From Amphiscolops sp. MND2022 (lineage: Eukaryota): 64,000 bases of DNA. Positions within the stretch are counted from its first letter, which is position 1; each line of letters opens with the position of its first letter. The notes below the pieces were generated by a model that was not told the origin of the DNA, did no database searches, and worked only from the letters and a program-made list of their open reading frames with translations. The translations under genes were made by a program, and so were the position numbers. The stretch covers positions 3,908,001 through 3,972,000 of the forward strand of contig OZ076409.1 in the NCBI GenBank assembly GCA_964187785.1. Reading direction: 5' to 3'. Below are positions 3,981-59,493 of the stretch, in pieces.

Positions 3981-3984
3981 CCGA

Positions 3985-29470: not shown

Positions 29471-31110
29471 TCAGTTTGTCAGAATGCCACGCATATGACC
29501 GCTCGTTGTGTTGAAAATGACCTCCAAAGAATTGCACAGAAATGTATTAGGGAAAAGTATCCTAATCATGTATGCTAATCATGATGTAGCAATTCGCCAG
29601 CAAGAAGGAAACCTGACAAGCAGAGATGCAAAGAGGCCATACCTTCAGTTCAACATATCACATAAAAATGGTTCGTATATCGGTACTGTAGGTGCAGTTC
29701 TCCTCGCAGGTAGTAGTCCTCGAGTGGTCATTGCTGATAAAGGAGCTTGCAGGTGCAAAAGACGGTAAAATTAGCAAACTTTGTGATGGTGTTTGGGGCC
29801 CCAAGATATCATTGTTGGCAGTGAAGAAAGCGCAGATGTCCCTTGCGTTAATATCATAAAAATCTGGTTTTATAAACTTTTCAATAAAGATAAACTCAAG
29901 CATAAAGTGTAAAATGACAAACTCATATCTGCTTTTGATGCTTGCGAACGCCGCGATCGAGTTTGAACCAATGTGTTTCATGTCTGCGACTAGAAGAATT
30001 CAGCAGTGAAACGTTCAAAAAATGGGCTGAAGCATATTACCAATTCATTATCTTGATATTCGGACATGCCGATTTGACACTTTATAAATCGAAAACGCTG
30101 AAAATTCCTCAACTTATTGAAAGTGGATATATACGAAGACTACTTGATCATTTGTGTGAAGTGAAGGCCTTGAAAAATCCAACCACCAAGCTAATCGTGG
30201 CTTCCAAACAATAACAATGCGCGGAGTCGGCAAAGTCTATCACAAGGATCCACTATTCCTCTAGTTGTCCTTTTCTTTTTTGAATTCCTCAAGATTCGCA
30301 GTTGAAGTTGGAGACAAAAGGTCGTACGCTGAACCAACTTCTAAGAACATCATGGAACCTGAACAAAACGCAACAACAGAGGTCCACTATGATACCATAA
30401 TGTGACTGGAAACAAAAAGAACTAACAGACAGTTTCGAAAAGTACCTCAAACAGCGTAATGAATATATTTCATGGTGCAACAAATATGATATGCATTGAC
30501 ATTCCGGGACCTCTGTACCTTGATATTTGCCGCAAAGAACCACCATCAACATCTATCGCCACTGGTTGTCAAGAAAATCATTCAAGTGGATTAAGATTTT
30601 GCCTGTTTGGTCGCTTGGGTACTTGCAAAAAACAATACTCTAACACATGACATAGTGAAACAATTGATTATCAATATGGGAGAAACTTTTCTAGAAAATG
30701 AACCAGCTGACGTGTTAATGAGCACCCATTCACAACTCCCCAGTTGTTTTGTTCTCGCCAAGGACGAAAAAGATCTAGTTTTAGGTACCGGTTCCACAGA
30801 GGAAACAAACGACATGAAAAAACCAAGGAAAAGAGGGTCATCAGCAACACGGGAGGTTGGAATTGAACCATCACTATATTCCAAAGTAGCGAATCCATTC
30901 GCAGCTTGGGGTTTCAATTTTTGAACATCGATTTTGTAGCTGAAGTCGACGAGAAAAAATGCTGATTGACCCGGAGCCATACATTCTTCGCATGGATCCA
31001 AACTTGTTGAAAATTGTGTCAACGACAGAAGACCTTCGTGGAAATCCACGGGGTGAAAGTGTATCTGCAATTGTCGCTCTCAAGAGATACCGTGATGGCA
31101 CTTTTTAACA
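29471..31110 (+). pseudogene. RAG1/Transib-like DDE transposase + BRCT, copy 1 (5'-truncated, frameshifted)
   Basis: VCQNATHMTARCVENDL aligns to TCPNVLHMIIRSVESDL of copy 2. YYQFIILIFGHADLTLYKSK..LCE-GLEKSNH aligns to YYQSTICLFGDRALTPYKLK..TEGTEKSHH. SGLRFCLFGRLG..LTHDIVKQLIINMG is a BRCT-like start. Confidence 0.7.
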
Positions 31111-31834: not shown

Positions 31835-33440
31835 CTAGTTCAATGGAGGCTGAGCGTTTCCCATAATGGCAGCAACAATGGGACAGCGTTCCAGGTGCAA
31901 AGATGGATCTAGCAATTTTACCGGCAAGACAGTTCTTCCCCTGCCTTTAACATGGGTAACCATCATTGCGGGTTTTGACTGGAGTTCTAGTAAATATGTT
32001 GTCGTCATAACTTCCTCGTAGGTTTTCGTGTAGGGGTGAACACCGATGGACACATAATCTGGAACAGTTAGAGCCTTACTGGGATCCGTATTCTTTTTGG
32101 TATGCTCGCTCAGATAGTTGCGGTTGCTTTTTGGTGGCTCAGGCAGAGTCACTCAAGCTTTTTTGGCCCAAAACGATGTAAAGTCATTCAGGACTGAGAT
32201 CGGGTAGCACCTGTAAAACGTTAAAATCAAATTATTGCTCTAAAGCTTTGGAAAAACTGGCCCTTCAACCTGGAGAGCAAATTTCAATTGAAAACTCCAA
32301 AATATTTTGGTATAGTTCTTGTATATCATGAACCTATTGACTTAGTAGCACAAAATTTCACTCAGTTGTTTTTTACTTGCATGTATACTAGACATGAATG
32401 TAGAAAATTACCTATATGTGTTTTGAAGTCTTGAAAAATGCAAGACTTTTTCATGAACAAAAGTTTTTGAACTAGAAAACGACCCTCATTAGAAACAAAG
32501 AGGAAATGATTGAAAATGGAAAAAAAGTTTTGTTTCCAAACAAGTCTGAAGGCTTAATAATCTTACTTTACGGGCGGCGTGTCCATTGTATATTGATTGC
32601 ACTGTGCTGTATATCGACACAAGGCGCCGACAGAGTCGAGGGCACAGCTTTCCGGCAATACGGTACGCCAGAAGTATCAACATCTCTGGAAGATCAGGGA
32701 ACTTGTATTCGGATCTTTTTGGGAACTCGACAATGATTGAGTGTCTTATCTTGGGCAGGTGCTCGAACGCCAGGAAGTTTGTTCCCAAGGAAATGGCATT
32801 GCCTTTCGTAAGAACAAAGTGGAGGAAATTTGGGGGCATGACTAGAAAATCTCCAGTTGTGACATGCAACCGCAAACATCTCTCTTCCAGCTGGTCGATG
32901 GTCCTGAAGAATGTTGGCCTGCAATTACATCAATTGTGTTTTTCAAATTTCTTGACATCAACAAAAGTAAACTGGAAAAACTTTTAATACTTGAAAAGAG
33001 ACGTTAATTGCTTGCTGGGTGTTGTTTTTCATCACCAAAAAATGTTAGCTGAAAAGTATGATTGTTTGTTTTTGAAAATAGAACAGTGTTCCTGAAGACA
33101 AGAAAATTGGTGAGCTAGAAAAGTTTTTCTACTAACGTACAGTTCTTCTCAGCAGTCGACCATCTTTCAAAAATCCTGAGATTTTTCTTCGACGGTTTCA
33201 CCAAAAAAAAATCTTCTTTCCAGTTAGAACTGTGTAAAACACAATGGTCGAAAAATAACACCTGATGCCACGTCGTGTGCACAGAACTTTGAGTGACCAG
33301 GACACAATAGGAAGTAGAACAAGAGTAAGGCAAGAGTTGGGGAGTGTCCTGACGTCGATGACCTTTCAAGGGTGATACCCTCTACCTGGATGACAGTTGG
33401 CCAACTCACCGAAAATTTCTTTATACGTCATTTCTCGTGT
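31835..33440 (-). pseudogene. ZnF-JmjC gene copy 1, 3' exons (KDM2/KDM7-type JmjC)
   Basis: Exon start ag|TREMTYKEIF; TWHQ..STIVFYTVLTGKKIFFLVKPSKKNLRIFERW; CLRLHVTTGDFLVMPPNFLHFVLTKGNAISLGTNFL (distal Fe-binding His present). GT-AG introns; frameshifts. Confidence 0.8.
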
Positions 33441-33899
33441 CTGTAAGAACATCCTATTAAATGATGATGCTAGGCAAGGTTCTAATTCACGTTATCAACA
33501 AAGTACTTGTCACACGTAGATTGGCCCTCGATTGGTATCAAAACGAACTCGACATAATGAACTGTCCCGGTTTCCACAATTTTTCAGTATAGATTGACTT
33601 GCTTAAAAAATGCAATGCGGAAAACAAGACCATATCTTTAAATATATGACGTGGAAACCAAACACAAATCCTAATAGATTGAGAAGTTCCAATCAAAGGG
33701 GTATACACATGATTGCGCGTTATCAAAGTGTCCTGCTTTCCAAAGTTTTTCAGTATAAATTGACTTGCTCAAAGAAGGCAATGCGGAAAACAAAGACACA
33801 TCTTTAAAAAGATGACCATCACGATACATATCCCCGCAAGCAAGTTCCCAGATCTTGCGACTTGCATTAATATCCAATCACAGTGAGTTATTATTATAA

Positions 33900-37251: not shown

Positions 37252-39898
37252 CCTGTCTCACGGGGAATGGATTAGCATTTCAATATCCTGATTGACTTCA
37301 TAGTCTCTGCCACGGAAGGGTGCTGGCACTCAACAACTTCAGGAGTTGGGATGTGCTGGTCGTACTGCCGCTCTTCGGTGGATGCTACCGAGGAAGGATA
37401 GCAAGGGGTAAGGTGCGAGAACGATCAGCTCATCATCCGTGATTGCGCTGTCAGGCATTCTCTCGCCGTCATTGTTTCTTTTTGTCCATTTTGCAGGATA
37501 GTATGCTCGGGACAGGTTCAAATAACGGGACAGGTCTGACAGGCATGCTACAGAGACTTGGTTGTCAAATCTGCTGTGGGTGAAAATCTGATTGTCAAGA
37601 TATTCCCTTGAGAAACGAGCGTAGCGCTGAAAAGTAAAAGATGTGAAAACTCAATATCTTTGTCATCTTGAATACTACTCTATCTTGAAATTTTTAATCA
37701 TTAAATATACAATTTACCCGTTACAAAATTGAAGACAATTTGTTCGGAACAACTATTCTCACCATTTGCACTTCCTGAAAATACTTTGCTGTCCTGAAAA
37801 ATTAGGTCTACTAACTGTCCGTCGGTCTCTTGGCTAATATATTGATTGAATAGCTCAATATTACTTTGCGTCGGTGCCACGAGGAAAAAGTTTTCTCACC
37901 CGTGAGTACAGTGTACATCACGGACGTTGCCGAGAAATCCTGGTGCCAAATGGTCTGGCATCCATCGTTCGACACGAGCAGGTAATTACGAGGTAGCACA
38001 AGAGAATGGTTCTGATCTGTCTCCAATGATCTCATCAACAAAGTGATTGATGGATGTTTGCTGAATCATCATCGGGACAGTGTACACTTTGTGTAAAAAA
38101 GCATGACTGAGATTCATCTCAAACCGATCATGACATTAAACAAAATGAGTTGATAACTTAAATGAGACTTATCTCAAACCGATCATGACAGTAAACAAAA
38201 TGAGTTGATAACCCAAATGAGGTTTACCTCACGCCGATCATGACAGTGAACAAAATGAGTTGATAACCTTATTTGAGATTTATCTCAAACCGATCATGAC
38301 AGTAAACAAAATGAGTTGATAACATAAATGAGGTTTATCTCAAACCGATCTTGTCAGTAAAAAAGAGTATTACCTTCGGTTTAAACTGAATGTCGATTAC
38401 ATTCAGAGCGTAGAAAGGCCTGCTGGTGTCATTCCGGAGGAACTCATCCCGCACAGCGTGAAGGGTCAAATTACGTGTCTAAAATTTGAAAAAAGATCTT
38501 TTTGCGGGACATGTATCGTAATGATAGACAACTCACACCCCTGAAGTTAACCATCAATTCGAAGATTTACTGTTTCGAGAGAATCACTCATTGGGGGTAT
38601 GGTGAGAATTGAGAGAAAATACTTGATCAAATTTACCTGTCCAAGTTTTGCTGACTTGACGTTGATGGTATGATCAGTATCTTGGAGATTCTGGGGCTGG
38701 CGAAGTTCAACCAATTGATCAAAAAATGGTTTGTTGGCTTGAGGCCATTTGATATGCCGACAATGATCAACCCCAATCTGCCAAACTATGGGGATACCAT
38801 TCCTTATCAACTGAGAGACTTTCCTCACTTGGTATTTTATGGGGCCATTCCATCTCGCTATGGGAAACTTCGGGGAACTTGAAGATACGTCCAAGCACAA
38901 TTGGAAGTATGCGGGGGAGCCAAAAACATCAGGGAGCGTGGCATGAAAGTCACTTGGAGCGAGGCACTCGCTTGATGAAAGGAAATCAGGTAGGTCATCA
39001 ACCTGTATAAGTAGAAAATGATAGTATAGTAATTGAGTATGATACATAGAGAGTTTAAACAGTTGAGTAAAATCAAATTGGGTTAAAATGATATTCAATC
39101 TTATGAACCATTTTGGAAAATAAATGATTTTGTGAGTCAATGATGTAATAAAATTACAACAATGATTTGATAGTGCAATAACTCACTTGTGCCTTGCAGT
39201 CCGGATGTTTGGAGAGGTGGATTTGCAGATCGTATGAATACTAGAAGACCTTGCCACATCCATAGCACTTGTGGCTTTGGCGTCTCTCTCCTCGTGCTGG
39301 TTTTGTAAATTACAATCATAGTTATCACTTCGAATCATGGAGTAACAGATTTGATCTGGTGTTCAAAACTAAATTTGTTTACTGGCATAATTAGATCACA
39401 TTATTAATTTGATCTGATGTTCAAAGTTTGAATAAAATTGTTTACTGGCATGATCAGATGAAATTAGCGATTTGATCTGATGTTTAAAACCTAAATATTT
39501 TGTTTACTGGAATGAACAAACCACTTGCTGTACTTGTACATGGTGATCGCTTCTTTTCTTTTGAGCTCACGTTGCTTCACACCGTATTTGGTCAGCTGAT
39601 GCTTCTTCATGAACTTGACCTGCATCAGTACTTGTCCACACTGCTGGCAAGATCGCTGCCTGATCTTCCACTCCTCCCTTGACTCACAAAGGCAGGTGGA
39701 CTTCTGGTGGCGCGTGACGTTGCTTTTCACTTTGGACGAGTAGTCACAAGTACCTTGTCCGCAGTGAAAAAGCTTGCTCGACGGAGAATATCGAGGTGTG
39801 GATGCTGCCGGGGTAGAATCGCAAGAGGATGCTGCTGAGGTTGAAGGGGCGAGAGAATTGTCATTTGAAGACATGATAACTAAAAAACATGGGACCAT
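37252..39898 (-). pseudogene. ZnF-JmjC gene copy 2 (C2H2-like fingers + KDM2/KDM7-type JmjC), multi-exon
   Basis: First exon FHCGQGTCDYSSKVKSNVTRHQKSTC...CQQCGQVLMQVKFMKKHQ. JmjC RNYLLVSNDGCQTIWHQDFSATSVMYTVLTGEKTF matches the KDM2/7 pattern YCLMS....TDFHxDFGGTSVWYHVLxGEKIF. Introns such as 38479-38636. The exon with the distal His was not found. Confidence 0.82.
38105..38365. repeat. ~55-bp tandem repeat (~4.5 copies), intronic
   Basis: tgagatttatctcaaaccgatcatgacagtaaacaaaatgagttgataac unit. Confidence 0.9.
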
Positions 39899-39929
39899 GA
39901 AGCCTTTCTCAATTTCTTTTTAAAAAATT

Positions 39930-40162
39930 GAAGTCTGACTGACTAAGTTAAAAACATGAAAAGGTCTGAGTGACCTTGTCAAAAACATGAGCACGTCTGA
40001 GTGACCAACTTAAAAACATGAAAAGGTCTGACTGACCATGTTAAAGTCTTGAATAGGTCGGAATGACCATGTCAAAAAAGGAATAGATCTTAGTGACCAT
40101 GTCAAAAACATGAGTAGATCTGAGTGACCATGACAAAAACATGAGTACGTCTGAATGACCAT
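39930..40162 (-). repeat. ~31-34-bp minisatellite (gacatggtcactcagacct core), inverted relative to 48400-48830 and 52160-52450
   Basis: Repeated aggtctgagtgaccatgtcaaaaa. Confidence 0.85.
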
Positions 40163-40520
40163 CAGGGTTTTGACATCGCTAATCTTCCGCTAGTCGCTAA
40201 ACCGCTAATTTGAAAAGTGCTATTTCGCTGAAAAGCTTTTTCCGCAAACTATTAAATGTTTAGCTTCAACTATGTTTCAAATTATTTTATTCGGATTTGG
40301 GAAGAGAAAAGACTAGAATTCTTTATTCTGCGCGTGTTTTACAAGGGTAAGAGTTGGAATTGTTCCGAATATCATTTTGAAACACCGTTTGTACACAGAA
40401 GAAATTTTGAATTTGGAGGGTCTGTTAGTTACCGCTAATTGAATCGCTAATGAAATCGCTGAAAAAATTCTGCGCGGTCGCTAATTCGCTAAATCGCTGA
40501 TTAGCGGTCCTAAAACTCTG
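40163..40520. mobile_element. hAT-like MITE
   Basis: Termini CAGGGTTTT...AAAACTCTG; 8-bp TSD atgaccat/gtgaccat; subterminal cgctaa repeats. Confidence 0.8.
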
Positions 40521-40629
40521 GTGACCATGTCAAAGATGAAATTAATAATACATATCATCAATGCATAAAAGCAAAATAAAGGTCAAGAAACATAAATAAC
40601 CCATCATTATTATACATGATAAAACAGAG

Positions 40630-41850
40630 TTAAACTGAAAATTTTTGATTCTTAGAGGTTTTGTCTTTTGCATGGCTCCGGTAACTAGACATTGTCTTAT
40701 AATTGACATTTGACACTAGAGCAACGATGACATATATGTTTTTGCTGAAATTGAGGCTGCAAGTTTTGTCGACTTTGACTTTCAGTGAAACGACACAAAC
40801 TGTCCCATCCGCAACTTTGTCCCATTCGTGTCCCAAAACAGTGTCCCAGACAGCTGTTGAGCATTGTCCTTCTTCAAACTGTAAGTGACTGAACCACCTT
40901 CTGCCGGAATACCAAACGCATGCATCAAAACGGAGCAGCTTGGAGCAATGTCTTTTCTGAAGTCCCAAATTCTAGATTGATCGCTATAAAAATGCATCAG
41001 CAAGTGCTTCAGGTTAGAGTACGCCCAGTACACTTGGCATAATTATTGTCAAAAGGAACATCTGGGGTACTATGAAGTGGCAGAGTCCGATCTTTCTTCA
41101 CGTAACAAAGAGGTACCGTTGATTTGAAGAAAGGGTCATCTTCTTTCTCAACTTCGATGACTAGTCTCGAGTCTTCGATGAAAATCCAAAACAACCTCAA
41201 CGAGAACTCAGTGCCCACCACGTTTACGATGTCTCCTTCAACTGCAACCCCATTTTTGATTGGGATGGAAACAAGCTCTACATGACCTTCAGGTTTCGTT
41301 AGGAAAGGTTCGGCTGGTCCTCCAGAAAGCACCTTCGCTAATTTCGCTTTCTTTCTAGAAGGCAGTTCAGTTCGGATGTTGCAATCGTCTTCGTCGTCTG
41401 TATCTTCTTCTGTTTCTTCTCGAAGCGTCACTCTCTTTTTCTTGTAAAGTTCTTCATGCGTTCCCGGTCGTAGTTGAAAGTAAGAAACTGTCGCAAGATC
41501 AATTCCATCTAGCTGGTCGTCAAAAAAATTCCCCTCTTCAATTGGGACAACTACAGGTGACACAAGCATCTGTTTTCTAAATGGATCATTTTTCATGACA
41601 TATCCCTCTTTCACGTTCTTCGTCAGTACTCCATCTCTTTCCATTGATTACGTGTAATGAATCAGATCATTTCTGACTCGCTTTTGTTTGAAGTAGCCAA
41701 GCACTTCAAGACTGAGGACCAACTCAATTCGCCTGGTGTAACTTGCGGCTGTGCCTTCGTTTTCTCTGATGGGCCATTTTTCAGGAAATTCGTGGAAGCG
41801 TGGTGGCGCTTCTAAAATTCCGTTAGCGTACTTGCTTGAGTAGTTCAGTC
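40630..41850 (-). pseudogene. Orphan protein gene, frameshifted, function unknown
   Basis: Overlapping minus-strand ORFs 41009-41644, 40782-41033 and 40630-40968 with protein-like composition, an acidic tract (EETEEDTDDEDD) and an NLS-like PSRKKAK. Confidence 0.6.
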
Positions 41851-42340
41851 ATTGTACGGTGTCCTGATAAAAGCGATCACCTGAATCTATTTTGATATAA
41901 TTGGAAAAAGAATATTGGTGGGAGTTTCCGAACGTGTAAGGCTTCATTTATTGCTAGTTTTATGAACAAAAAAATGCTCCCATTTTTTGTTTTCCTGGCG
42001 ATTTTCACCCACAGAAGCTATCACGGGGTTGAAAAATGTATCATGATACATGTATCAAGATATCATTTTGAAGTTTATAAATTTAAAACAACTTGAAGCT
42101 TGAAGCTCATACTACTACAATTTACAGTTTTTTCAAGAAAAAACTAAATCGCCAGATTCATATTGTTTGAGAAATTTTTCCGTCAAAAGTTTTCTGGAAA
42201 CAAAAATTTGTAAGTGGGTCAAAAATTAAAAAAACTAAAGAATGATGTTTTGGAAAATGCTCTCGACCAATGAAATGAGCGCGTGAGACATTGATCAGCA
42301 AAGGATATTTGTTTGTTTGCTTTCTTTCTGCATGATATCC

Positions 42341-44549
42341 AGCTATTTGGGAATTCACCAATTAGTATGTGTATTTTCTCTCACTTTCAATTCTGTTTGG
42401 CGCATCAAGTGAAAAATCTGGCTCAGAAAGAACACTTCTGGTATTTTCCCAGTTTTTCAAAACCAGCTAATTGTAACTTTCTCAATTTTTGTACCAGGAA
42501 AATTTAAATAAAACACTAATGCAAACTAGATGAAGTTCCAAGATTCTTTTGTTTCTTATGTTTTTCAAAATCTTTGACAGATTTCGAGCAAATCAAGCCT
42601 AAAATCGCCCCGGGTGACCTTTTCTTAATCGCAGTACTGTATTTAGGAGAAATTTGATTTGATCATGCCAGTAAACAAAATTTTAATACGTACGATTCAC
42701 AATTTTCTTGAAGATAACAGTATATTCCATAACCAATAGTTTTTGCGGACACTTGATTAGTTTTATCAGATATTCAGAATAACAAAATGACTTACTTTAT
42801 GCGTCCCGATGATCTCCGTAATGTAAGCTGAACGCCAAAGGCCGCATTCTTCTTCAAAGCATTGGAGTAGTTTTCCACAGTTGAAGTTTTTTGAGAATTG
42901 CATTGTTAAATGGATGGACTTGGTATCGAGTTGAATTTATCAAGATTAGGAGTGGTTTAAGTAAGTCTGGCAGGCAAATGTGTGAGTAAAAAGGCAAAAA
43001 TCCAATGCATAGATGTGATTCTGGTACCTGACTGTTTTGAGTTGATTTAAGTTACTAACACCTAACTTTGAGGGTAATCCTTTAAGGCATGAGTTTATTA
43101 GATGTAATCAGTTAGTTAATTAATATAGGTGTCAATTATGTTGGTTCCATATTGCTATTCTGCTGTATAGTCACGAAACGTGAAAAATGAAAAAACTTTT
43201 CTGAAGAAGTTCGGTAGTGGGGGAAAACAGAAGAGAGCAAAAACACTCGCCCGGAATCGAACCCACACACAACATATGAGAATAAAGGCAATTAACTACT
43301 GAGCTATCGATGTTGCTCATGCAGCCATCAACAGCACAAATAAATTACTGTGATTAGGAAATCGTCCCCTATGCGCTAAGCGTCGTTATCAACCAATTAG
43401 AATGATTAGGTACCAAAAAACATAAGAGCAGCTAACATAAAAACTACTTTTTGAAAAATTAGTTTCAAATAACATAAAAATGAAATTAGTTTCAAATAAC
43501 ATAAAAAAGAAATTAGTTTCAAATAACAGAAAAATGAACCCGAATACCTAGCTAAGAAATCAAACTCACGAAAATATATTTGTAATTTTCATACTTTTTT
43601 CAGTGAAACTTTTGAAATGTGAATGCTTTTGACAACTAAAACTTTCTCGTAAACAATGTTATTTTTGTGTTTGGTCAAATTCATTTCATTTTTATGTTAT
43701 TTGAAACTAATTTTGTTTTTGTTATTTGCTCTTATGTTCAACTAAGCTATTTGGGAATTCACCAAATAGAATGTGTATTTTCTCTCACTTTCAATTCTGA
43801 TTGGCGCATCAAGTGAAATCTCTGGCGCAGAAAGAACACTTCTGGTATTTTCCCAGTTTTTCAAAACTAGCTAATTGTAACTTTCTCAATTTTTGTACCA
43901 GAAAAATTTAAATAAAACACTATTGCAAACTAGATGAAGTTCCAAGGTTCTTTAGTTTCTTATGTTTTTCAAAATTTTCGACAGATTCCGAGCAAATCGA
44001 GCTTAAAATCGCCCCGGGTGACCTTTTCTTAATCACAGTACTGTATGTAGGAGAAATTTGATTTGATCATGCCAGTAAACAAAATTTTATTACATACGAT
44101 TCATAATTTTCTTGAAGATAACAGTATATTCCATAACCAATAGTTTTTGCGGACCCTTGATTAGTTTTATCAGATGTTCAGAAAAACAAAATGACTTACT
44201 TTATGCGTCCCATTGATCTCCGTAAAGTAAGCTGAACGCCAAAGGCCGCATTCTTCTTCAAAGCATTGGAGTAGTTTTCCACAGTTGAAGTTTTTTGAGA
44301 AATGCATTGTTAAATGGACGGACTTGGTATCGAGTTGAATTTATCAAGATTAGGAGTGGTCTAAGTAAGTCTTGCAGGCAAATGTGTGAGTAAAAAGGCA
44401 AAAATCCAACGCATAGGTGTGATTTTGGTACCTGACTGTTTTTAGTTGATTTAAGTTACTAACACCTAACTTTGAGGGTAATACTTTAAGGCATGAGATT
44501 ATTAGATGTAATCAGTTAGTTAATTAATATAGGTGTTAATTATGTTGGT
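42341..44549. repeat. ~805-bp direct duplication (42341-43145 and 43745-44549)
   Basis: Near-identical from agctatttgggaattcacca to aattatgttggt. Confidence 0.92.
43410..43763. mobile_element. MITE family (further copies ~52880-53267 and partial from 59494)
   Basis: Imperfect inverted ends cataagagca.. / ..tgctcttatg..tttgggaattcacc with internal aaattagtttcaaataac repeats. Confidence 0.65.
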
Positions 44550-44999
44550 AGTGAAAAGCGTTTATCACCTCTTGACATGAGGTAATCTCCTGATTGCCTC
44601 TTTTTCTGGGTGTGTAACAAAATTTTCTGAGGATCAGTTCTTCAGTTGTTCACCATTCTTGCTTCGTATTGCTCGCTTCTAATCTTGACTCTACAATTTC
44701 TTCGAATTCTCAATTGTCGAATAATACCACATCTCAATTTTATTTCAAATTCAAACAGATTAGTTAACAAATTTCAAACATCACTTCTGCTCATCTTAAT
44801 TCTGCTTTCAATGTTTTAAGCTTTCAAAAAATTTCAAAATATTTAAAGCTAACAGAATACCATTTAGTTTTAGTAAATTTTACAGTTGTCACTCTACTGT
44901 AACTTTTCACTTCAACCAGTTTTGTTTAATTTTACTATAACAATTTTTGTTTAACGCTTCTTTCCTTTACGTTCATAATTTTCATTTGTATCTTCAATC

Positions 45000-47900
45000 A
45001 TGAACGGCGATTGAATGTTCTCTTTTTCAAACAACTCGAGTTCTAATTATCACAATCTCCGAGAAATCGCTAATCAAGTTTTATAGAACGCCCCACCCAC
45101 AACATCAAATTTCAGTTATTCGCAACTCATCGAGGAGTCCCCTAGGTACCATGAGATGCAACCACGGCAACCCCACCATCAAGCCTCAACCCAACCAGCT
45201 GTCTATGATCCCTACGAATTTGTGTCGTCCAATTCGGTCCCTCATGCTTCCAACTCACCTCATGACAGTGTTGTGTCCGGAAATCAGCAAAATTTAGATG
45301 AAGTATGCGGATAAACAATATTTTTGTTCAAAGTATCTCAAAGTGTCAACAAAGTACTAGATAGAAAAAAATTTTCTGCATAAAAAAAGGTTAATAACTT
45401 GTTAATAATATGCTCGTAGTTTTTAGGAAAATAAGAAACTGGAAATCTATGATTTCATATTACTCAAGACTTGTTATTTGTTTCAAACTCGTCAAACAAA
45501 GAGTTCGGCAAACAGTTTTTATGCAATTTATCATGTCTTTTGTTTCATATTGTTTTTCGAAAAACTTTCTACTTCAAACTGAAAAAACGGATGTTCTTGT
45601 TTCTCAATCTTCATTTATATCGAATGAAAATTAAAGAAATGTACTTCTTGTTTAATTGGCTTTACCTAAATCAGAATTTGGCGGCCTTTTCAACATTCAG
45701 TTGGCATCTCAGCTTTGAACGAATTTGAACCCGAACAATTTTTTGAACATACACGATATATCACATTCAAAAAAAGGGGTCGAAAACAATCAAAAACAAA
45801 AAAAACAATAAATTAGGGTATTTAAATCTCAAAATATTTTAAAACGGTTTTTAATGGCGTGTCTTAAAACATTGTTTTGAAACAGGCCAACCCTGATATT
45901 ACGAGTTGAATACTAGTGAAAAAATGGTTACTAGTTGAAATGGTTTTTCAAACAACTGCGAATTATTCTTGTGATAACGATTTTTCATTTCCAGCACAAA
46001 CCACGACTTATTACCCTCCCCACGTGGTACCAGCAGAAAACAACCCTCGGTTTGATCCTGGATCGACGTCAACTCTGATGCGACACCCTCACCCGATGCA
46101 TAGACCCCGCTTTGAGGCATTGACTTTGCGAGTGCCTCCGATAAGCACTGTTCTATTTCCGGGTGCAGGTAGCTGTCAGATGCCTGCCGTTTCCGAATTC
46201 CCACCAGCAATGCCGCCAAGTGATGAGCGATCCCAGGCGATGAAAAAATGGGCTCAAGGTCGCGCCCACTTTCAGCATCTGGTTGACTGCGACAAGACGC
46301 CCCCAAAAGAGGATTGTCTGCTCGTCTTCCAATGCCTAATGATAATGTGGCGCTACATCAATAGCTACCCCTCCCGCCTTCTGAAGCGATTCACTGTCTA
46401 TGATTTTGTGAATTTCAACGAAAATGACAGTGGCAGCTTCGTGGTTGCCTTTGAAGACGGGACCAAGTACAAATATAGAACTGCCCTCAGGTTCACCAAA
46501 TTCGAGAAAAGTGTTTTGACATTTTTTTCAAACGTATCAGACCAGTTTGGATTAATTCACTGAGAGTCCTGAATGAAAGTTTCGACGTTTCAACAATTGT
46601 CGCAAATTTCAACGAAAGAACCCAGACCTTCTTCTACAACTCACAGGGCAATAAAAAATTGAATGTTTCAAGAGACTGCGAAAACTTTCAAAGCAAGATG
46701 AATGCGACTCACAAAAAGAAACGGATAGCAATTGTTGCTGGCCCTGATGAGGAAAGGATAAACGACGATGCCGAGAACCCTCGCCCAAGCACAATTGATG
46801 ACCCGACCGTCAACTTGAAGAAGGCGCGCATTTCACAGGACGAGATGATGACCATGTCGCCGACTTCCAAGAAACGAGTTTTCTATTCGGATTCCGATTT
46901 TCTTGAAAGTTTTAATGAGGTAAGTTCTTGTGTTTTCACAACAAGAGACAATAAAAAGTTATCAAGCGTTATCAAACAATGATTTGTTAGTAAAAAATTT
47001 TTGATTTAATTTTGTTTACCGGCATGATCAGATCATCAATGTATGATTAACCAATGACTTTCACAACTTACTGTTTCTATATGCAACTCAATATTTTCTT
47101 GTTTTCGCAATATGGGACAATACAAAATTATCAAACGATTTTGATTTGTTAGTGAAAAACGTTTGATTTAATTTTGTTTACGGGCATGATCAGATCATCC
47201 AATTATGATTAACCAATGACTTTCACAACTAAGATTTTCAAAATGAAAAAGTATTTTCGACTCCCAACGAACGAAGATGAAAAGATCCCGACGCCTGCTC
47301 AATGTCGCAAAACGATCATGGAAAACACCTCTATATACAAGGCTGTAGCGCAAGAGCTGGGGGAAAGAGTCAACGATCATTTGCGTTACAAACTTGTAAA
47401 ATTACGTGTCCAAAAGATGTTGCAAATTTTGGCTGGATCTACAGCTCCTTCCAAAACCACTGTTGTGAACAATGTGCGAAGCCGTGGTTGGACCGATCAT
47501 GCGAGGATTGTAGATAGCACACTCGCTCTATGGAAACCAGCCCCGGTTTCCGAAAAGAGAAGATCGACGCGCCACACTCCGACTGAGGACACGACTGCTC
47601 ATTCACACAGTAGAGGATACAACTTGTTCTTTTGCAGTTTCACATCTGCTATCGTCAACATGCAGAAAGTAACTGAATTCGTGGCAAGTCAGCATTGGCC
47701 GTTCCTACAGATTTGCGAGAAGATCGTTTTCGACAATGGTGCTTCTGGACGAGGCGTAGTAGCAACGACCCCGATCAACAAATACGAAGTTGTCTGTAAT
47801 TATCACACAGATGTGATCATCACACAGTCCGTAATGTGCCAACGTGAAAACACGCAATATATTCTAGACTGTGGCGACATAGTATTTGATGCAACTTTAG

Positions 47901-48400
47901 ACACTTGTGAATGCCACCCTGGACGAAGAACATTCGGAAGACTTTAGAATTATAGACCAGATAATCAACCCCAATGCAATGTCCGAATGAAGCTCATGGT
48001 GATAAACGGAAAGAACGCTGTTTTTTTCATCGCAAAGAGAGACATAGACGCGTTGGAAGAAATATGCTTCGATTACAAAGACCCAAAATGCAAAGGCGAA
48101 TTTTGTTCGAGACCTACTGCTGTTACTGTGTCATCCGATCCACCAACCTCTGATCCGCCAACCTCTGACCCGCCAACCTCTGACCCGCCAGCCTCTGACC
48201 CACCAACCTCTGACCCGCCAACCTCTGACCCGCCAACCTCTGACCCGCCAACCTCTGACCCGCCAACCTCTGACCCACCATCCTCTGAACCTCTATCCGA
48301 CTCACCGACCGTTGAGCACGTCCTATTACCTGAGTCCCAAGAAACCTTCCCACCATTGTCCAACGACTCTACCATTTTTGACGATTCGCTAATTTATTAA
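45000..48400 (+). pseudogene. Multi-exon SET-domain gene (PR-Set7/SETD8-like SET at ~47740-48085), disrupted
   Basis: GRGVVATTPINKYEVVCNYH...FDAT...TFGRL*NY...CNVRMKLMVINGKNAVFFIAKRDIDALEEICFDY; in-frame TAG at 47945-47947. Likely upstream exons 45000-45302 and 45994-46919 (GT-AG); their linkage to the SET exon is inferred. Confidence 0.82.
48133..48290 (+). repeat. 15-bp coding tandem repeat (SDPPT x ~10)
   Basis: tctgacccgccaacc units in frame after the SET domain. Confidence 0.92.
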
Positions 48401-48830
48401 ATTTCAGACCTACAAACTTCTTTTTTGAAATCACTTGGTCATTCATCATTTAAATCACTCAGACCTACACTTTTTTGTCAGGGTCACTCAGACCTACTAG
48501 GTAGTACAAAGTCTTTTTTTGACATGGTCACAAAGACCTACAAATTTCTTTTTTGACGTGATCACTCCAACCAACATTTTTTTTTGAAATGGTCACTCAG
48601 CACTACAAATTTCTTTTTTGACATTGTCACTCAGACCTACTCTTTTTTGACAGGGTCACTCAGACCTACTAGGTAGTACTAGGTAGTACAAAGTCCTTTT
48701 TTGACATGGTCACTCAGACCTACAATTTTCTTTGTTGACGTGGTCACTCCAACCGACAAAAATATATTTTTGAAATATCAAATACTCAGCACTGCAAATC
48801 TCTTTTTTGACATTGTCACTTTCTTGACAT
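48400..48830 (+). repeat. ~34-bp minisatellite between SET and transposase genes
   Basis: ttttttgacatggtcactcagacctacaaatttc units. Confidence 0.88.
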
Positions 48831-48860: not shown

Positions 48861-51800
48861 TTGGACATGTTCAAGCAAAAACCCATAATTGTTGACGGGA
48901 AAGCAAATTATGTGAAGCTTGCCTTCCTGAACATTCTCTTCCCAACGATGTTCTCCCTACATCCCGATAAGAAATTTGGTCTCAAGAAAAATGGCCCACG
49001 AAAGATCAAAACATACATCGAGAAACATTTCAACGGGTCAAAAGTCCAGATCAACGATGTCTATAAGCCTAACGGGATCAAGTCCGAACGATCTGCTGCA
49101 CTGCGAGAAGATATATTTGATCTAATGATGATATCTGCCCCACCGTGCACACTTCCTTGGTCTCCCGAAAGACTACAATATTTGAGACATTTCTATCCAA
49201 CTTTGCCCCTTGCTTGTATCGACGCACAAGAATTGAAGACTGTTGATGTATCGATCCTGAACGCACCCGATGCGCCAGCCGACTTATCAATTCAATCAAC
49301 TTGAGAAGTCACAGGTCTGGTCTAATTCATTTAAACTTTTGATAGATTCAACCGAATCCCTGAATCAGTTCGCTCTGAGTTTGAGAGACTATCTCTACAA
49401 ACAAAAAGATGTTTCAAAAAGAAAGATTACTATTGTCTGTCGACTCCTCAGAATGCTACTTCCAAATCTTTTCAGTAAAGATAGAGACGAAACACAAATC
49501 AATATCCAATGCCTCCTTATGATGAACAAACATCAGGACCTTCTCGTGAAGATACGCCAGTTACTCCAGTGCCGATTCGTGAAAGCGACGATATTGCCAT
49601 CACGACTCGAACTTTCAATCATCAATAGACGGAATAATGATTTATTCAGAACTATGCTTGAACCATCGAGAACGCATACCGGCTTCCGTGTAAACCTTGT
49701 GAACTTTGTGAAGTTTGTTGCCCTTCATGTCTATGGAAAGAATTCCATCTCAGGATTGCGAATCGACATTTATACACATTTATACGACAGTTGATACAAT
49801 GTCACGAGGCAAACGAGATGTCGTGAGAATGGCCTTCCGCATCTTAGATACTGAAATTGAAACTGAACAATCTTCGACGCATGTTTTCAATTTCGCAGTT
49901 TTCGACGTAAGTTTTTGGCTTTTGTGTTTTCCAATTTTGCTTTCTGATTTGATCTTCAATGTGAATATATTTCTTAGAATTTTGCTTACTGACGTCATCT
50001 TCGGTTCATGTTTTGTTTTCATTTTACTTACTGGCATGATCTTCCAAAAGTTCTATGTTTCTTTAATTTTGCTTACTGGCATGATCTTCCATGTCGTGTA
50101 TGTTTTCACAGGGGAAAGATGTACGAGTCAATTTAGAGTATAACCTGACAATGGCGAACGTATTAGGACACAATGGGTGGTTATACAATGAAGCCAAAGC
50201 ATTGCATGAAGAAGGAGCCCTTTTGAATTGTTCAGGTGATTCGCCTTTCCAGCTGATATCACTGAAAGGAGTCAATAGTGACGTGTCATGCCTATCGAAA
50301 ATGTGCCTGTATGTTCCTGATCATCACATTTTGTCGCAAATTGTCCCAAAGCAGCAAGTGAAAAAGAACAGTGAAGCACACAAGACGGCGAAGGAAGGCA
50401 AGGATGCGATTCTTCCTTCCACGGTTGATCATTTCACTGGAAGACGAACTGTGCTGACTATTTATATCAACGAACAAATTCCATCGCTTATGTTTTTGAA
50501 GTCCACATTCAACACGTGCCCTAATGTTCTTCACATGATTATTCGATCTGTCGAAAGTGATTTGAAGCTACACGTCGATTCACTGATCATATCTAACATA
50601 CTTGCGATATCGAAATTAGAATGTAATATTACACAAAGAAATGTAAAGCCGTCTCGGTTCAGTTTTGAAATAGTTGATAGGATTTGTAAGGCTGTTACTT
50701 TGATCTTTCGAGACGCCGAAGTCATAATTTCGGACTGTACACGGACGAGCGAATATGGACGAATGGATACTCCTAAATTCGAAGAGGTATATTCATTCAA
50801 AGAGGCACATGTTTACAAGGCTGATCAGGCGAATGAAAATGCACCATATAATGTACTGATATCCTTGGTGGACGATTTAGAAACATCGTTTCCGAAAGGC
50901 ATTGGTATTTCACAACGGAAATTGGCCGATCTGCAATTTCAATCGCTTTACCAACTGCTGGAGCTACTGCGACAACGGGCGTTGACTGATCTCCAAAGTA
51001 GTAGAGACCTTTACGAGACATATTATCAAAGTACCATATGTCTATTTGGGGATCGTGCCTTGACTCCGTACAAACTGAAGATCGACATGCTGCTGAGGAT
51101 AATCGAATAGGGAGAGATTTTAGCCCCATTTAATTACATGACCGAAGGCACAGAAAAGAGTCACCATACAGCCAGCAAAGATTACAATTCGAGAACGATG
51201 CGCGACGGCTGTAACGATGCTTGGAATATGTCGTCAAAATATCTTGACATACGATTTTCACTCTTTCGAGCCATTGATTTGTCGTCGTCAAAGTCGAAGT
51301 TGCTTCAGCAGTGCCCCGACCAAATAACCAAGACGTATCTACAGATTTGCCAAGAGTCGATTGATGAGCCATCTCTTGACATCGGAAGGACAAGCGATAT
51401 TTTCAGATGCATACACTTCGTTGTTCTCGGAACATATGGGCACTTGAAAGAAACTCAAGGAAGTTTGGAGAGGAACATTTTGAAAAATGTTGGCATTGTT
51501 CTGAGCAATACAGACATCATTAATCGAAGCAAGTTTAGTTTCCTGAGCCACCATTACTCTGTCCTCCCGAATAGCAAGTGCATAGATACTTTGGTAAAAA
51601 ACACGCCCGGCACGAAGGAGACACTTACTACCAAAGCGGTAAATCATACCACCCTGGGCAATTGGATTTACTTGAAAGCCGAATTCATTACTGATTGTGT
51701 GAAGAAAAACATGTTGATGGATCCCAAAAACTACTTTTTTGAACTGGATGCCACAGCAAGGGCTAAATTGAGAAAAACACGTTTCCAGAACATTGCGCCG

Positions 51801-51920
51801 CAATTACAACGACAATCACAACCTCTCGGAGCTGGATCGATAACATACCATACGGCAATCAGAAAGTATAAAATCGCCCAGAAAGCATTGAAAAAGAAAT
51901 TCAACAGCGTCGATTATTGA
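48861..51920 (+). pseudogene. RAG1/Transib-like DDE transposase with C-terminal BRCT domain, copy 2
   Basis: Putative triad: LRIDIY..VDTMSRGKRDVVRMAF (D1, broken by a small duplication at ~49767-49790), LNCSGDSPF (D2), MTEGTEKSHH (E); also CPNVLHMIIRSVE and LTPYK. Phase-0 intron 49907-50111 (FD|GKD); stop at 51108-51110. BRCT IFRCIHFVVLG...WIYLKAEFITDCVKKNMLMDPKNY. Confidence 0.75.
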
Positions 51921-52159: not shown

Positions 52160-52452
52160 ATTTTTTTGACATGATCCTCAGACCCACAAACTTTTTTGAC
52201 AAGATCCCCCAGACCTACAAATTGTTTTTTGACATGGCCACTCATTCCTAAAAAATTCTTTTTGACATGATCACTCAAACCTACAAATTTCTTTTTTGAC
52301 ATGATCACTCAGACCTACAAAGTTCTTTTTTGACATGGTCATTCAGACCTAAAATTTTCTTTTCTGACACGGTCACTCAGACCTACAAATTTCTTTTTTG
52401 ACATGGTCACTCAGACCTACAAATTTCTTTTTTGACATGGTCACTCAGCACT
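52160..52452 (+). repeat. ~34-bp minisatellite downstream of the transposase
   Basis: Same unit as 48400-48830, ~8-9 copies. Confidence 0.9.
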
Positions 52453-53540
52453 CCATATTTCTTGTATATATTGTAGAATCGATGGAATAATTACACTCAA
52501 GTTTTTTTTACTGGCATGATCAGACGACAAGTATAACTTTGTTTACCGGCATGATCAGAACACAACAATTATAGTAATTTTGGGACCATGTCATTTATTT
52601 CCCCGAGGTACACTTTGAAATTGAATTTTGTTCGCGGTAAAAACTAATGAGCAACTACTTGTTACTTACTGGCAATCGATGTAATGGATAGGATTATTTC
52701 ATCAATTATTTTATTGGATCAAAATTTCAGCGCAAACGATGTCGACATAATGGTATTTGAACATTTTGTCTTATTACTCCCCGCTGCAGTTTGGGGGATA
52801 GATGACATGGTCCTAATTATGTGTACTGGCATGATCATAATATACAAAAACCAGAAATGAAAAACAACGAAATCATTACGTACCAAATAGCATAAGAGCA
52901 AATGACATCAAAACAAAAATAGTTTTAAATAACCTAAAATTCAAATTAGTTTCAAATAACAAAAAACCGACTATCCGGTTAAACAATCGACATCAGAAAC
53001 TTTCACCTGTAGTTTCCACGCTTTTTTGAGTGATTATTTTGAATTGTGAATTACTTTGACCACTAAATCATTCTCGTAAACAATTTTTTTTGTTTGGTGA
53101 AACTCATCATGAAAACTAAAAATGTTTACGAGAAATTTTTTGTTTATATAGAAATCTAGAAATTTGAAATTAATTTCAAATGACAAACATGAAATGACTT
53201 CATTTTTATGTGATTTGACACTAATTTCGACTTTGTTATTTGCCAAATGTTATATGGGAATTCACCAACAAAAATTCATAAAAGAATTCTGTCTTCCTTT
53301 TTGGTTGTGCTTTGGATAAAATTGATCGTCGGTCTGGATAAATTGGCCAATACGGTGTCCATTCAGTAAACAGAAACCACTGCATGCAGAAATCAAAATT
53401 ACATGTAGACTCTAATTTCAGAAGAACTGCGCTAATTAATGGCGTGTAATAATGCTTGGAACACTAGACCCAGCCATAACAATTTAAAACGCTACCTTTC
53501 CACTAAAATGAAATGAATTTAATAATTCAGATGAGTTGAT

Positions 53541-55875: not shown

Positions 55876-57624
55876 GAACGATGTCTTTTGCCAAATCGAT
55901 ATGGGGGTAATACAGAGTGGTCTGTATAGAGTCACCGAGCAGTGCGTATGTTAGGGAATCGATCCGGCGGTAGACAACGGTGCTAACTTCACTTCATACT
56001 CAAGTGAAATATTAACTGCGCCACCATCCCCAACATGCCGTTGCATTGAAAACATGTTTACACTCACACAAGTTTATCTTTCGTTTCTCTGACTGTCCAA
56101 CTTGAATTGTATAATACTTTGTAATCGAATTGTACAATATTTTTAACAGTTCTAAGTAACGATTGCATTTCAAACAGCATTACAATCACGCGTGTAATAT
56201 TAGAATGCTTCACTCTAATGCGTTAATGTTTCAGTAATCACAAAAAGCCAAACCAAAAAATTTATGGTTAAAATGTTTGCATGCTGTCACGATCAGTTTG
56301 ATTAAGTGTTGTCAAAGTCAGTTTCGTAGCTGAAACGTATCTATTTGGTTGCTGAAGGTGCTATTTGATTTGTGTGTGTGTGTGTGGTTGGGGCTGTGGG
56401 TCATTCGTATCAAGGTGTAACGGGTTGGTGAGGGGTGCATATGAAGTGTATACATGCATATAAATAGTATCACTGTAGCTATTCAAAAAATTGGTTTTCA
56501 AGCCTTTTAGCTTCAAATAACATAAAACTGAAATTACTTTCATTTACCATAAAAAGAAAAGTGATAACCCGGTAAAAATTTCTATTTGTAATTTCTAGAC
56601 CACTTAAACTTTCTCGTCAACAATTTTTGTTTTGTGAAACTGTTTTCCATCAACTTTGTCGGGCACAAATAACTGCTTAGATTACAAATCTCAACGAAAA
56701 ATTACTTTTGCCCAGTATAATTTAGTTTTAAAGAGGCTCTCAGTTAGGGGATCACATAGTGTCGCCCATAACAAGACCCACGCCGAGAACGTGGCCTCTG
56801 AAGGGTCTCAAAACTTGTAAATACATCTAACTAACAATACTTCAACCCTGTGTTGTGTAGGAAAATGAACACATGGTCCAGTTTATTTTCAAACATTTTG
56901 CTTACTGGTAGATCAGTAAGCAATTAGTTCAAATCATTAAACTCTAAATTGACATAATTAGTTAGTTACACTAAATGGCTAGATTCTTTTGCGTGCAGGT
57001 GTCATCCAATGTAAACTTTGGTGTATGTATGTATGTGTTAATGTAAGTATGCGGTAATTGTTTAATCGCGTAATTCAGTCAAAGTTAATGTGTAATTTAG
57101 TCAAAGTTATTAAACGCCAAGCAACTATTCAATGTAAAATGATGTGTTGGAAGAAATTATTAAATTGCCGTAAACTAGTCAAATTTTGACTAAATTACAC
57201 TTTTCGATAGTTTTTTAAATGTAGACTCAATAAAAGTGAAATTTAATCGAACTTTGACTAACTTACACCTTACTAAATTAGCTTGTTAATTTTGACTGTT
57301 TTACACCATTTACTAACTACGCATTTTGACTGGAATTCACCGCGTTCGCATTACACTTTGCTGCACCACTACACTTATGGATTACTACAGTCTTTGACAA
57401 ATTTACAGTAATTGAATATTTTACCCAGAAAACTATTTACACCAAGTGATAACTTTCCACTTTTGCGGGACATGTATCGTAATGACGTGGAAACCAAACA
57501 CATACACTAATACAATGCAGAACTTCACTTGAAAGGGTAAACCCATATTTTGTGTAATGGAACGACTAAATTTGTTTTTCAATAAGTGCTAAACATGGTT
57601 CAAACGAGTGAAAATCTTTTTTAC

Positions 57625-59493
57625 CTCTCCGATTCTGACTGACTTGACTTCAATTGGGGCATCAGGTTAAGCAAGGTTGGCCGGTCGCAGAAACCGTTTG
57701 ATCTCCGCCACGAAGCCTTTTTTCACGGAGAATTTAGAGACGTTCAGTCCTTTGCAGTGCTTGGCTCCGTTTCTCCAAATCAATTGGACACCATCAAGGG
57801 GTCGAAGAAGGTGACCAAGCGTTCAGTTTGGTTGTCATGGGGACCTTGCCACTCAGCGTAGGAAAATCGACATTTTAGAGGCATGTTTTTGGAACATGCG
57901 AAGTGCTCTTGGTTGCCAAATGTGGGGAGTCCCGAAATTGAATGTCAAATCAAGTGGCTTCGGTGATTGGGCAATTTGACATGGGGTTGATCTCGCTATG
58001 TGGTTCCTCAGGCTGTATCCGTACCCGGATGACGTCCCACACGAAATGGAGAAGTGAAGAATTTTTCCGAAAAGTTTGTGTTTTTGGGCCTTCTATTTTA
58101 CATCACGAAAAATATGTTCTTTGTTTTCGTTTTTTTTCTTTCGCGTACGATAATCGGTTCAAGACCTGAAAAAATTCCAAAACATGAATAAACAAAATCC
58201 TGGAAACAATCTGAACAATAACGGTAATGGTTATTCCTGACTTCTTCGCAAGCAGCAATCTTTCCAGGTTGTTTCGTGCAGTATTTGGCTCTTCTTTGAT
58301 GGCGCTCTTTACTTTTTTTGATCGTCAAAATCTGACCACCTTTCTCGCAGGTCAAATTCTGAGCAACTTGTTCCTGCTTGCTGACTTTTTTGCATGCCCG
58401 AAGAAGACTGGTTAAATGCCATTTTCTTCCAGCAACGTAGTCGCAATTCGGAAACGGGAAGCCTAAACATATCTTTTTAAATTATACGAGATGAAGAAGT
58501 CAAACAAAAAACCATACCTATACATACAATATACATGCATAATTCGGATTGTTTTCCACGAGTTACAAAAATGATGTTTTATTTAGATTGTTCAAAACTT
58601 TGAAAAATGGTATACATGATATATTGATCCACGTGATGGTTGATTTGACAAACTATTTATCATTCACTTTACAATTACAAAAAAATGGAGCTTGTATTTT
58701 GTCAAATGGATTTGTCAAAACGAGTACAAGAACGAGTATATGAAACTCTTACGTTTTTTAGGTGGCAGAGTTGTATCTCGAAATTAGTCACAGAGTTGCC
58801 TTCTTCGGTTTTCTAGCAAGCCAGGGCAGGCGCGGGCAAGATCAGCAAGGGCTTCTCGGGGGGGGGGGGGCATAATGATCGCAAGCACCGAATGTGCAGA
58901 GATGACCTGAGTAATGAAACAAAGATGAAAATGTATACGAAAAATAAAGACTCATACACAGGGGTGTTCGAACCATAACTGCGTGAAAAAATATTGGCAA
59001 TTAATGGAATCAAATAATGGATTGGAAGAACCGACTTAATGCAACAACGTTGATAGAAGACGCCATTTATTTTTATTCAAAATTACCATGGCATATTTCA
59101 ATTCTGCGAACAAAGATAAATAATTCCGTTCTGAAGAAAAAAAAGCTCCATTCTTTTTTGAACATCTTTGTTCATAAAGACCCAAAAACTCAACAGAAGT
59201 AAGTCCAGAATAAAGTGCAGAAACGTTCAGCACAAATTCAAACATTTTTCGCCGTCGAAGTTGAAGTTTGATAGTTTTTGACTTACTTCACTCGTAGTCA
59301 AGAAAAACTTTGTTTTATCAGGCTGTAGATTTTTCAGTAATTCAGGAATTTACGACTTACCAAAGAACCGTTCTGGTGATGAGTCAGACGAGTCCACGCG
59401 GGATCTAACATTCTGAGAAGTGCTGGGTCCGGTAGCTTGCTCGGAAGTACTTACAGGTGTTTTCTTCAATTTCGGCTGTAACAACTTGAACAT
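57625..59493 (-). pseudogene. ZnF-JmjC gene copy 1, 5' exons
   Basis: Exon ~59493-59361 splices in frame to FPFPNCDYVAGRKWHLTS..LTCEKGGQILTIKKSKERHQ (zinc fingers as in copy 2). A later exon FSYAEWQGP...LIWRNGAKHC...PANL..IEVKSVRIGE|gt aligns to copy 2 FPIARWNGP...IVWQIGVDHC...PQNL..INVKSAKLGQ|gt. Confidence 0.78.

Follow-up and report, generated by a model that had tools for sequence, protein, structure and literature searches.

The window analyzed here comprises 64,000 bp of the Amphiscolops sp. MND2022 genome (contig OZ076409.1, C1:3908001-3972000 of a 1.07-Gb assembly). The segment at window positions 33817-57484 is probably a decayed autonomous transposon of the CMCT kind, the lineage of which keeps a SET gene together with a JmjC gene and may set its own chromatin methylation. 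At least four accessory genes are present in the element, among them the SET gene and the zinc-finger JmjC (ZnF-JmjC) gene. An earlier note on this DNA had placed a JmjC gene and a SET gene at 37252..48400; both genes are indeed located there, but both are pseudogenes and not intact genes in the window. The window copy of the element is dead, with JmjC, SET, and transposase all broken. Three other copies of the same element family (family 1), designated C10, C2, and C11, were used for comparison, and genome-wide protein searches were run on the same assembly.

The extent of the element was determined by blastn of the window against the three other copies and of these copies among each other, which revealed a repeat unit of 23.7 kb. 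Homology starts at 33817 in the window, C2, and C11, whose upstream flanks differ, and it stops at an end common to the window, C10, C2, and C11, again with different flanks. The left terminal inverted repeat (TIR; 33817..33841, +) begins with CATCACGATACAT in the window and with CATTACG in the other copies, corresponding to CAT(T/C)ACGATACATATCCCCGCAAG; the right TIR (57460..57484, +) ends with GCGGGACATGTATCGTAATG. Together, they form an imperfect inverted repeat with 5'-CA..TG-3' termini, and about 21-22 of the first 25 positions of the CATTACG...CGTAATG ends are complementary. Flanking sequences proved to be unrelated between copies at the right end (4/4) as well as at the left end (3/3). 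Furthermore, a 2-bp target-site duplication (TSD) was found in each of the three copies in which both ends could be read, namely AC/AC (33815-33816 and 57485-57486 in the window), CG/CG, and TC/TC, an outcome with a chance of about 1 in 4096. The left end of C10 is masked by a run of N. The 25-mer at 57460-57484 was also considered as the end of a nested short element; this was ruled out by its inverted partner at 33817 and the matching 2-bp flanks in three copies.

Some structural peculiarities of the copies were observed. Both C11 junctions are locally duplicated: each junction with about 100 bp of flank occurs in tandem (joined-stretch positions 21290/23261 and 47979/50239), the periods being about 1.97 and 2.26 kb. 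In C10, about 5 kb are duplicated in tandem within the element, and a further tandem duplication at its right end comprises about 6.85 kb. The duplications in C10 and C11 could be assembly effects or real rearrangements. Additionally, a copy of the right-end 25-mer is located in a JmjC intron at 38499-38523 in the same orientation and is also present in C11 (29044-29068), i.e. in the subfamily comprising the window copy and C11; it may represent a solo end or what is left of a short derivative.

A gene at 48861..51920 (+) encodes a RAG1/Transib-like DDE transposase, which is about 1000 aa long and has a BRCT-like C-terminus. In the window copy, this gene is broken into four reading frames and carries the exchange D149N and a stop at 51108-51110; in the C2 copy, open reading frames (ORFs) of 423, 451, and 161 aa were found. 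A HMMER search with the 451-aa piece against 1.84 billion representatives yielded 184 proteins, and single ORFs of 1000-1300 aa were retrieved at 30-40% identity. An AF2 model based on a 28-row alignment reached a pLDDT of 78. Comparison with 48,161 chains using VIA-align identified BbRAGL as the top match (Z 12.2, 236 aa, rmsd 3.2), and the next ranks were taken by RAG1 (four entries, Z 10.1-11.7), HzTransib (8.1), and the transposase of the P element (7.6), before an unrelated chain appeared for the first time at Z 6.3. Independently, the Atlas indicated clusters of RAG1, Plavaka, and Transposase_21. Acidic residues are kept at D52 (22/22 sequences), D149 (27/28), and E356/E359 (28/28) with spacings of 97 and about 207 residues, which we take to be close to those of RAG1 D600, D708, and E962. 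The BRCT-like domain was detected at the C-terminus of 4/14 homologues at E<1e-3, with E 1.7e-4 in a sister element, L044, which is described below.

Members of the CMCT clade, named as EnSpm/CACTA, Mirage, Chapaev, Transib, Plavaka, ESTA, as well as Lanisha in PMC12730594, are characterized there by 5'-CA..TG-3' ends, duplications of 2-5 bp, and C(2)C/H(3-4)H motifs. With this clade and with RAG1/ProtoRAG, the element has in common the CA..TG termini, a TSD within the range of 2-5 bp, and a predicted core fold of the RAG1/Transib type. It differs from the known CMCT families by the lack of a Pfam model match, by its BRCT-like tail, and by its size of 23.7 kb with at least five genes. Transib transposons have a 5-bp duplication and ends of the type CACAATG resembling recombination signal sequences; the element has a 2-bp duplication and CATTACG termini, so we do not assign it to Transib proper.

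The ZnF-JmjC gene is located on the minus strand and consists of seven exon segments, with both finger exons 5' of the JmjC exons. The first coding exon (39530..39874, ATG at 39874) encodes a finger-like region of the CxxC..H type (zf-H2C2_5, E 0.0012, below cut-off). It is followed by a C2H2 zinc-finger exon (39193..39276; CYGCGK..YDLQIHLSKH), which matches Pfam zf-C2H2 with E 1.5e-6 in the C10 copy and contains a stop in the window copy. The N-terminal segment of the JmjC part (E3) extends over 38628..39005, and a small segment (E4) over 38374..38476. The next exon (37822..38084) encodes the T..HxD..Y..K residues, with WHQDF at about 37937-37948; in the window copy, this exon is interrupted by two frameshifting indels and a stop. 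The exon with the distal Fe-ligand His is represented by its final 51 of 393 nt (37727..37777), the remainder being lost in a deletion of about 700 bp. The last conserved segment (E7, 37406..37632) was located by projecting the C10 copy onto the window with blastn (89% identity) and is conserved in a second element family (family 2, see below) according to tblastx. At 37777/37798, about 700 bp are absent as compared to the C10 and C2 copies and about 400 bp as compared to C11. The lesions of the window copy thus comprise the stop in the C2H2 finger, the two indels that shift the frame of the HxD exon, and the loss of most of the distal-His exon. The KDM2/7-type JmjC motif WHQDFSATSVMYTVLTGEKTF at 37886-37984 (-) is part of the ORF 37811-38065 (-), the translation of which includes YLLVSNDGCQTIWHQDFSATSVMYTVLTGEKTF; it is located downstream of the C2H2 fingers in the same gene, and its frame differs from that of the remaining HxD exon in the window copy.

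The JmjC protein was classified exon by exon according to the ranking of PDB matches. For the HxD exon of the sister element (L044:5940-6308), all 14 matches were KDM2A, PHF8, KDM7, or PHF2 (best E 1.2e-9), and the active-site T, H-x-D, Y, and K residues were aligned. The distal-His exon from C10, searched singly against the PDB with phmmer, yielded nothing, whereas a profile of three sequences from three element families succeeded: its top 12 matches were KDM2A, KDM7, and PHF8 at E 5.7e-7 to 3.4e-5 (best E: KDM2A 5.7e-7, KDM7 6.6e-6, PHF8 1.7e-5), and JMJD6 followed only at E 1.4. The distal His is invariant in all three element families. The Fe(II) ligands HxD...H and the 2-oxoglutarate residues T/Y/K are present in the intact relatives (C2 copy and L044), whereas the window copy is without the distal-His exon. 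When a single exon was used to look for annotated JmjC proteins of full length, no match was scored. The exons thus match exclusively the PDB group of KDM2A/KDM2B and KDM7A/PHF8/PHF2 at E<=1e-3, and the KDM2/7 type given in the earlier note is borne out; a decision between KDM2 and KDM7 affinity is not possible from E-values of 1.2e-9 and 1.5e-9. Enzymes of the KDM2/7 group demethylate H3K36me1/2, H3K9me1/2, H3K27me2, or H4K20me1. The element protein differs from KDM2 and KDM7 in several respects: it is without PHD, CXXC, F-box, and LRR and has N-terminal C2H2-type fingers instead; it is encoded by a multi-copy transposon; and identity amounts to about 30-40% over the aligned stretches. Pfam scans of all exon ORFs revealed zf-C2H2 and neither PHD nor CXXC, in agreement with the claim that C2H2 fingers take the place of PHD/CXXC.

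The SET gene (47213..48400, +) contains a KMT5A-like SET domain at about codons 177-291 of a 384-codon ORF. The window ORF has an in-frame TAG at 47945-47947, and Pfam SET matches it in two halves; in an intact copy, the match has E 4.1e-14. A 15-bp repeat at 48143-48288 codes for the C-terminal SDPPT tail of the protein. Comparison of a single SET sequence with the PDB gave 14 KMT5A/SETD8 sequences as best matches (E 7.8e-8). With the family profile, KMT5A (also SETD8 or PR-Set7) is the best solved relative at E 4e-11, six orders of magnitude ahead of EZH2 (1e-5), and the proposed closeness of the SET motifs to PR-Set7 was thereby confirmed. In 12 SET proteins with identities as low as 32%, the GxG motif, Y197, N246, and F286-D287-Y288 are kept; features in common with KMT5A include GxG as well as the tyrosines of the YH motif and of ELxFDY. 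The element protein differs from KMT5A by NY for NH and by an F where wild-type KMT5A has Y. The best KMT5A match, 3f9w, also has F where other KMT5A entries have Y, presumably as the product-specificity mutant Y334F. Further differences are an N-terminal region (about 170 aa) which is conserved and without known family, conserved Cys/His pairs around the SET domain, the SDPPT tail, and the transposon-borne, multi-copy nature of the gene. The AF2 model of the SET protein, based on a 12-row alignment, was poor (pLDDT 44.6). The sole named relative is the uncharacterised zebrafish protein si:dkey-23a23.2 (596 aa), with 27% identity by BLASTP and 32% in the alignment.

Copies of family 1 are dispersed over many contigs, and SET and JmjC genes are linked at 18 other family-1 loci at distances of 6-15 kb in divergent orientation. 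The same linkage, now including the transposase, was found again in family 2 at only 50-61% aa identity, so the view of the earlier note that the two genes belong to a mobile element and constitute a module was substantiated. Genome protein searches with JmjC, SET, and transposase were saturated by transposon copies. Scored matches are a subset of the first-look candidates, namely 150 of 1147 for JmjC, 150 of 750 for SET, and 94 of 1020 for the transposase. Among the JmjC exon matches, 21 belong to family 1 (14 without stop) and 129 show 46-53% identity, 124 of these without stop and many with identical scores. The SET matches include 117 at 60-62% identity, and 113 of these 117 are without stop, with ORFs of 342-343 aa; for the transposase, 83 matches have 73-77% identity, and 76/83 are without stop, mostly with open frames of 617 aa. 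Family 2 is hence represented by at least 80-120 scored copies per gene, mostly with open frames.

L044 (C2:66373001-66383000) is a family-2 copy with the transposase followed by ZnF-JmjC on the same strand and SET located just upstream. All seven JmjC exon segments are common to families 1 and 2 as determined by tblastx. In each of the 14 family-2 pairs compared, a distance of 7.35-7.44 kb separates SET from the JmjC exon; both are on one strand, and the transposase lies in between. A 2.6-kb family-2 stretch was 98-100% identical in 40/40 scored matches (of 1196 candidates); therefore, the expansion of family 2 must have been very recent. The L044 transposase has a private 2-bp deletion, which is absent from most family-2 copies. 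From this deletion, family 2 had been considered as non-autonomous; this was ruled out, with 76/83 other matches free of stops and the 617-aa frame mostly unbroken.

A third, older family is represented in the window itself. A tblastn search with family-2 exons identified exons E6 and E5 of its JmjC gene at 32654..33330 (-), with E6 showing 43% aa identity to family 1, and exon E3 of this outer gene at 57622..57923 (-), on the far side of the insertion. As these exons flank the 23.7-kb element on both sides, the element was inserted in an intron of the third-family JmjC gene. A transposase-like fragment of the outer element was observed at 29960-30231 (+). Gene order and orientation differ between the families; linkage of SET, JmjC, and transposase persists.

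On the basis of domain similarity alone, both genes could be taken as ordinary host KDM2/7 and KMT5A orthologues or as a host multigene family generated by segmental duplication. We regard this as extremely improbable: each gene has 750-1147 candidates, and the 94-150 matches that were scored are spread over many contigs; the unit has TIRs, 2-bp duplications, and unrelated flanks; PHD, CXXC, and F-box of the host enzymes are absent; and the window copy is nested in an intron of the JmjC gene of another element. The case of an ordinary single-copy host orthologue, which was named in the earlier note as speaking against an element module, is excluded by these candidate numbers, by the transposon context wherever it was checked, and by the defined element ends.

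Selection was analyzed by the ratio of non-synonymous to synonymous substitutions (dN/dS). For SET, dN/dS between family 1 and a 66%-identical family was about 0.09, with saturated dS; the N-terminal half gave 0.26-0.28. Values of 0.3-0.7 and, for one near-identical pair, of 1.36 were obtained within family 1; higher values are expected here because neutral decay after insertion is mixed in. For JmjC, comparison of the C2 copy with other subfamilies yielded 0.24-0.29 in 9/10 cases (331-530 codons, dS about 0.28), and L018 gave 0.39. The comparison of element copies recommended earlier thus revealed dN/dS well below 1 between families or subfamilies, and catalytic residues are kept. Because the linkage recurs in a second family, frames are open, catalytic motifs are intact, and dN/dS is well below 1, the SET/JmjC pair is, judged from these sequence comparisons, maintained by purifying selection acting on the element.

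DNA transposons do capture host gene fragments, and most family-1 copies are broken; SET and JmjC might thus be passengers, i.e. captured copies of host genes without function for the element. Such an origin without function is improbable: two to three families at 43-61% aa identity have kept the genes in full length with their catalytic residues, dN/dS is 0.09-0.29, frames are open in more than 100 scored copies, and the linkage to the transposase persists despite changes in order and orientation.

Three repeat arrays with the 18-nt core TGACATGGTCACTCAGAC adjoin the genes of the element. The first (39933..40162, -) consists of a 31-bp repeat (7.5 copies according to TRF, 6 core matches) directly upstream of the JmjC start; the second (48476..48753, +; 7 core matches) lies between the SET stop and the transposase start, and the third (52162..52463, +; 9.1 copies, 7 core matches) downstream of the transposase gene. 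Repeats are 31-34 bp long, and the core was found 20 times as compared to 0.06 expected, with all matches within the element. Two of the three arrays are oriented with the gene that follows. In the 10 kb of family 2 examined, the core does not occur. We consider the arrays as candidate protein-binding or promoter repeats, and their position beside genes may be a hint for self-targeting.

The element would make its own writer and its own eraser of lysine methylation, with which it would set the chromatin of its copies or of its donor and target sites. The finger-JmjC protein would be brought to element DNA, with the 31-34-bp arrays beside the genes as candidate finger binding sites, and would remove repressive low-degree methyl marks of the kind removed by KDM2/7. 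The SET enzyme would deposit a mark, of the H4K20 type by its nearest relative, favoring transcription, replication-coupled events, or repair of excision breaks. Anti-silencing, targeting by the fingers, and action of both enzymes on one residue, as suggested in the earlier note, stay conjectural. The reading as a self-directed demethylase is favored because fingers replace the host chromatin readers and element-specific arrays adjoin the genes. The complete scheme is offered tentatively: a probably active RAG1/Transib-like lineage may encode a histone writer and eraser, the fingers may bring the eraser to the arrays, and the element may in this way reset its own chromatin for escape from silencing or for preparation of excision or integration.

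KMT5A and H4K20 methylation act in break repair, and SETMAR, a primate SET-transposase fusion, is reported to methylate H3K36 at breaks. As the main alternative to anti-silencing, SET, JmjC, and the BRCT-like tail might therefore condition chromatin for the handling of double-strand breaks at excision or integration, for example by an H4K20-type mark for 53BP1 and non-homologous end joining or by turnover of an H3K36-type mark. KMT5A as the nearest SET relative, a JmjC protein equally close to KDM2A and PHF8, and the recurrence of the BRCT-like domain at the transposase C-terminus are consistent with such a role. This proposal draws wholly on analogy to nearest relatives, the BRCT scores remain below the Pfam cut-off, and fingers together with arrays fit sequence-specific targeting of the element better than targeting of breaks; we regard break handling as rather unlikely.

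Several observations weigh against a transposon of the CMCT kind which edits its own chromatin. Concerning the transposase, no Pfam transposase model matches the large ORF, and the only Pfam signal, BRCT_2, is below cut-off. For the transposase model, Foldseek found nothing at E<=0.001, with RAG1 entries having the lowest rmsd among the listed rows. Neither the C(2)C nor the H(3-4)H motif is apparent: in 28 sequences covering part of the protein, columns conserved to at least 80% include H152, H353, and H363 and no Cys pair. Furthermore, TIR and TSD data refer to family 1 only, and family 2 is known from an internal stretch. Family 1, to which the window copy belongs, is decaying: all seven JmjC segments are open in 1/12 copies, SET is free of stops in 1/9 close copies, and no examined copy has both genes intact. 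Concerning the enzymes, the canonical NH reads NY in 11/12 aligned SET sequences, and the zebrafish relative alone has NH. The His of this motif matters for activity in some SET enzymes; because NY replaces NH, enzymatic activity of the SET family cannot be assumed. Finally, both enzymes were assigned by sequence, and their substrates could be non-histone proteins.

Additional features were found within the element. An ORF of 212 aa without known family (41009..41647, -) lies in a region conserved to 90-91% in the other copies and had no usable match in the Atlas. Internal repeats extend over 42341-45325. Upstream of SET, two overlapping ORFs (45910..46982, +) correspond to a single gene in the C2 copy; 18 homologues were found at 43-95% identity, none of them with a Pfam family. 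The right arm of about 5.5 kb up to 57484 is without clear ORFs and contains a 93-bp tandem repeat (4.8 copies, 55373-55810). Rfam gave no match at gathering score within the window. Outside the element, Pfam matches to Pao peptidase, Integrase_H2C2, and DUF5641 mark the remnant of a BEL/Pao-type long terminal repeat retrotransposon at about 6843-12946 (-). BEL/Pao elements are not known outside metazoans, and the remnant thus suggests an animal host. Window regions 1-4000 and 22000-30000 show a strong C-over-G skew (GC skew -0.3 to -0.47), and their ORFs are of low complexity and rich in Pro, Ser, and Leu.

The abundant young family 2 provides ready material for tests of expression, activity, and insertion polymorphism. 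A trio of SET, JmjC, and RAG1-like transposase, present in deeply diverged families and in about 100 or more near-identical copies, would represent a testable case of histone-mark editing by a mobile element. Furthermore, a RAG1-type recombinase would have been linked to chromatin enzymes prior to domestication, which bears on the dependence of RAG on histone marks.

Among known systems, SETMAR/Metnase likewise associates a SET methyltransferase with a DDE transposase; it is a domesticated, single-copy host fusion, whereas the element has separate genes and is mobile and multi-copy. TET/JBP and JmjC enzymes are both Fe(II)/2-oxoglutarate dioxygenases. Our literature search, with Repbase Reports outside its scope, found SET- and TET-carrying transposons and neither a JmjC-carrying transposon nor a writer/eraser pair. 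HarbingerS and MuDR transposons of Phytophthora have incorporated SET genes (Kojima & Jurka, Repbase Reports 2014, cited in PMC12730594) and thus likewise have a SET methyltransferase as accessory gene; they belong to other transposase superfamilies and to an oomycete host, and no demethylase partner is mentioned in the respective passage of PMC12730594. According to the same source, diverse fungal DNA transposons carry TET/JBP dioxygenases, and plant VANDAL elements encode the anti-silencing factor VANC. The common concept appears to be a cut-and-paste element which encodes an editor or regulator of the marks silencing it. TET/JBP and VANC act on DNA methylation, whereas the enzymes of the element are predicted to be of the histone-lysine type and comprise a writer plus an eraser. 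If this reading is true, the element would be the histone-level counterpart of the TET/JBP and VANC systems and would encode the first transposon-borne histone demethylase.

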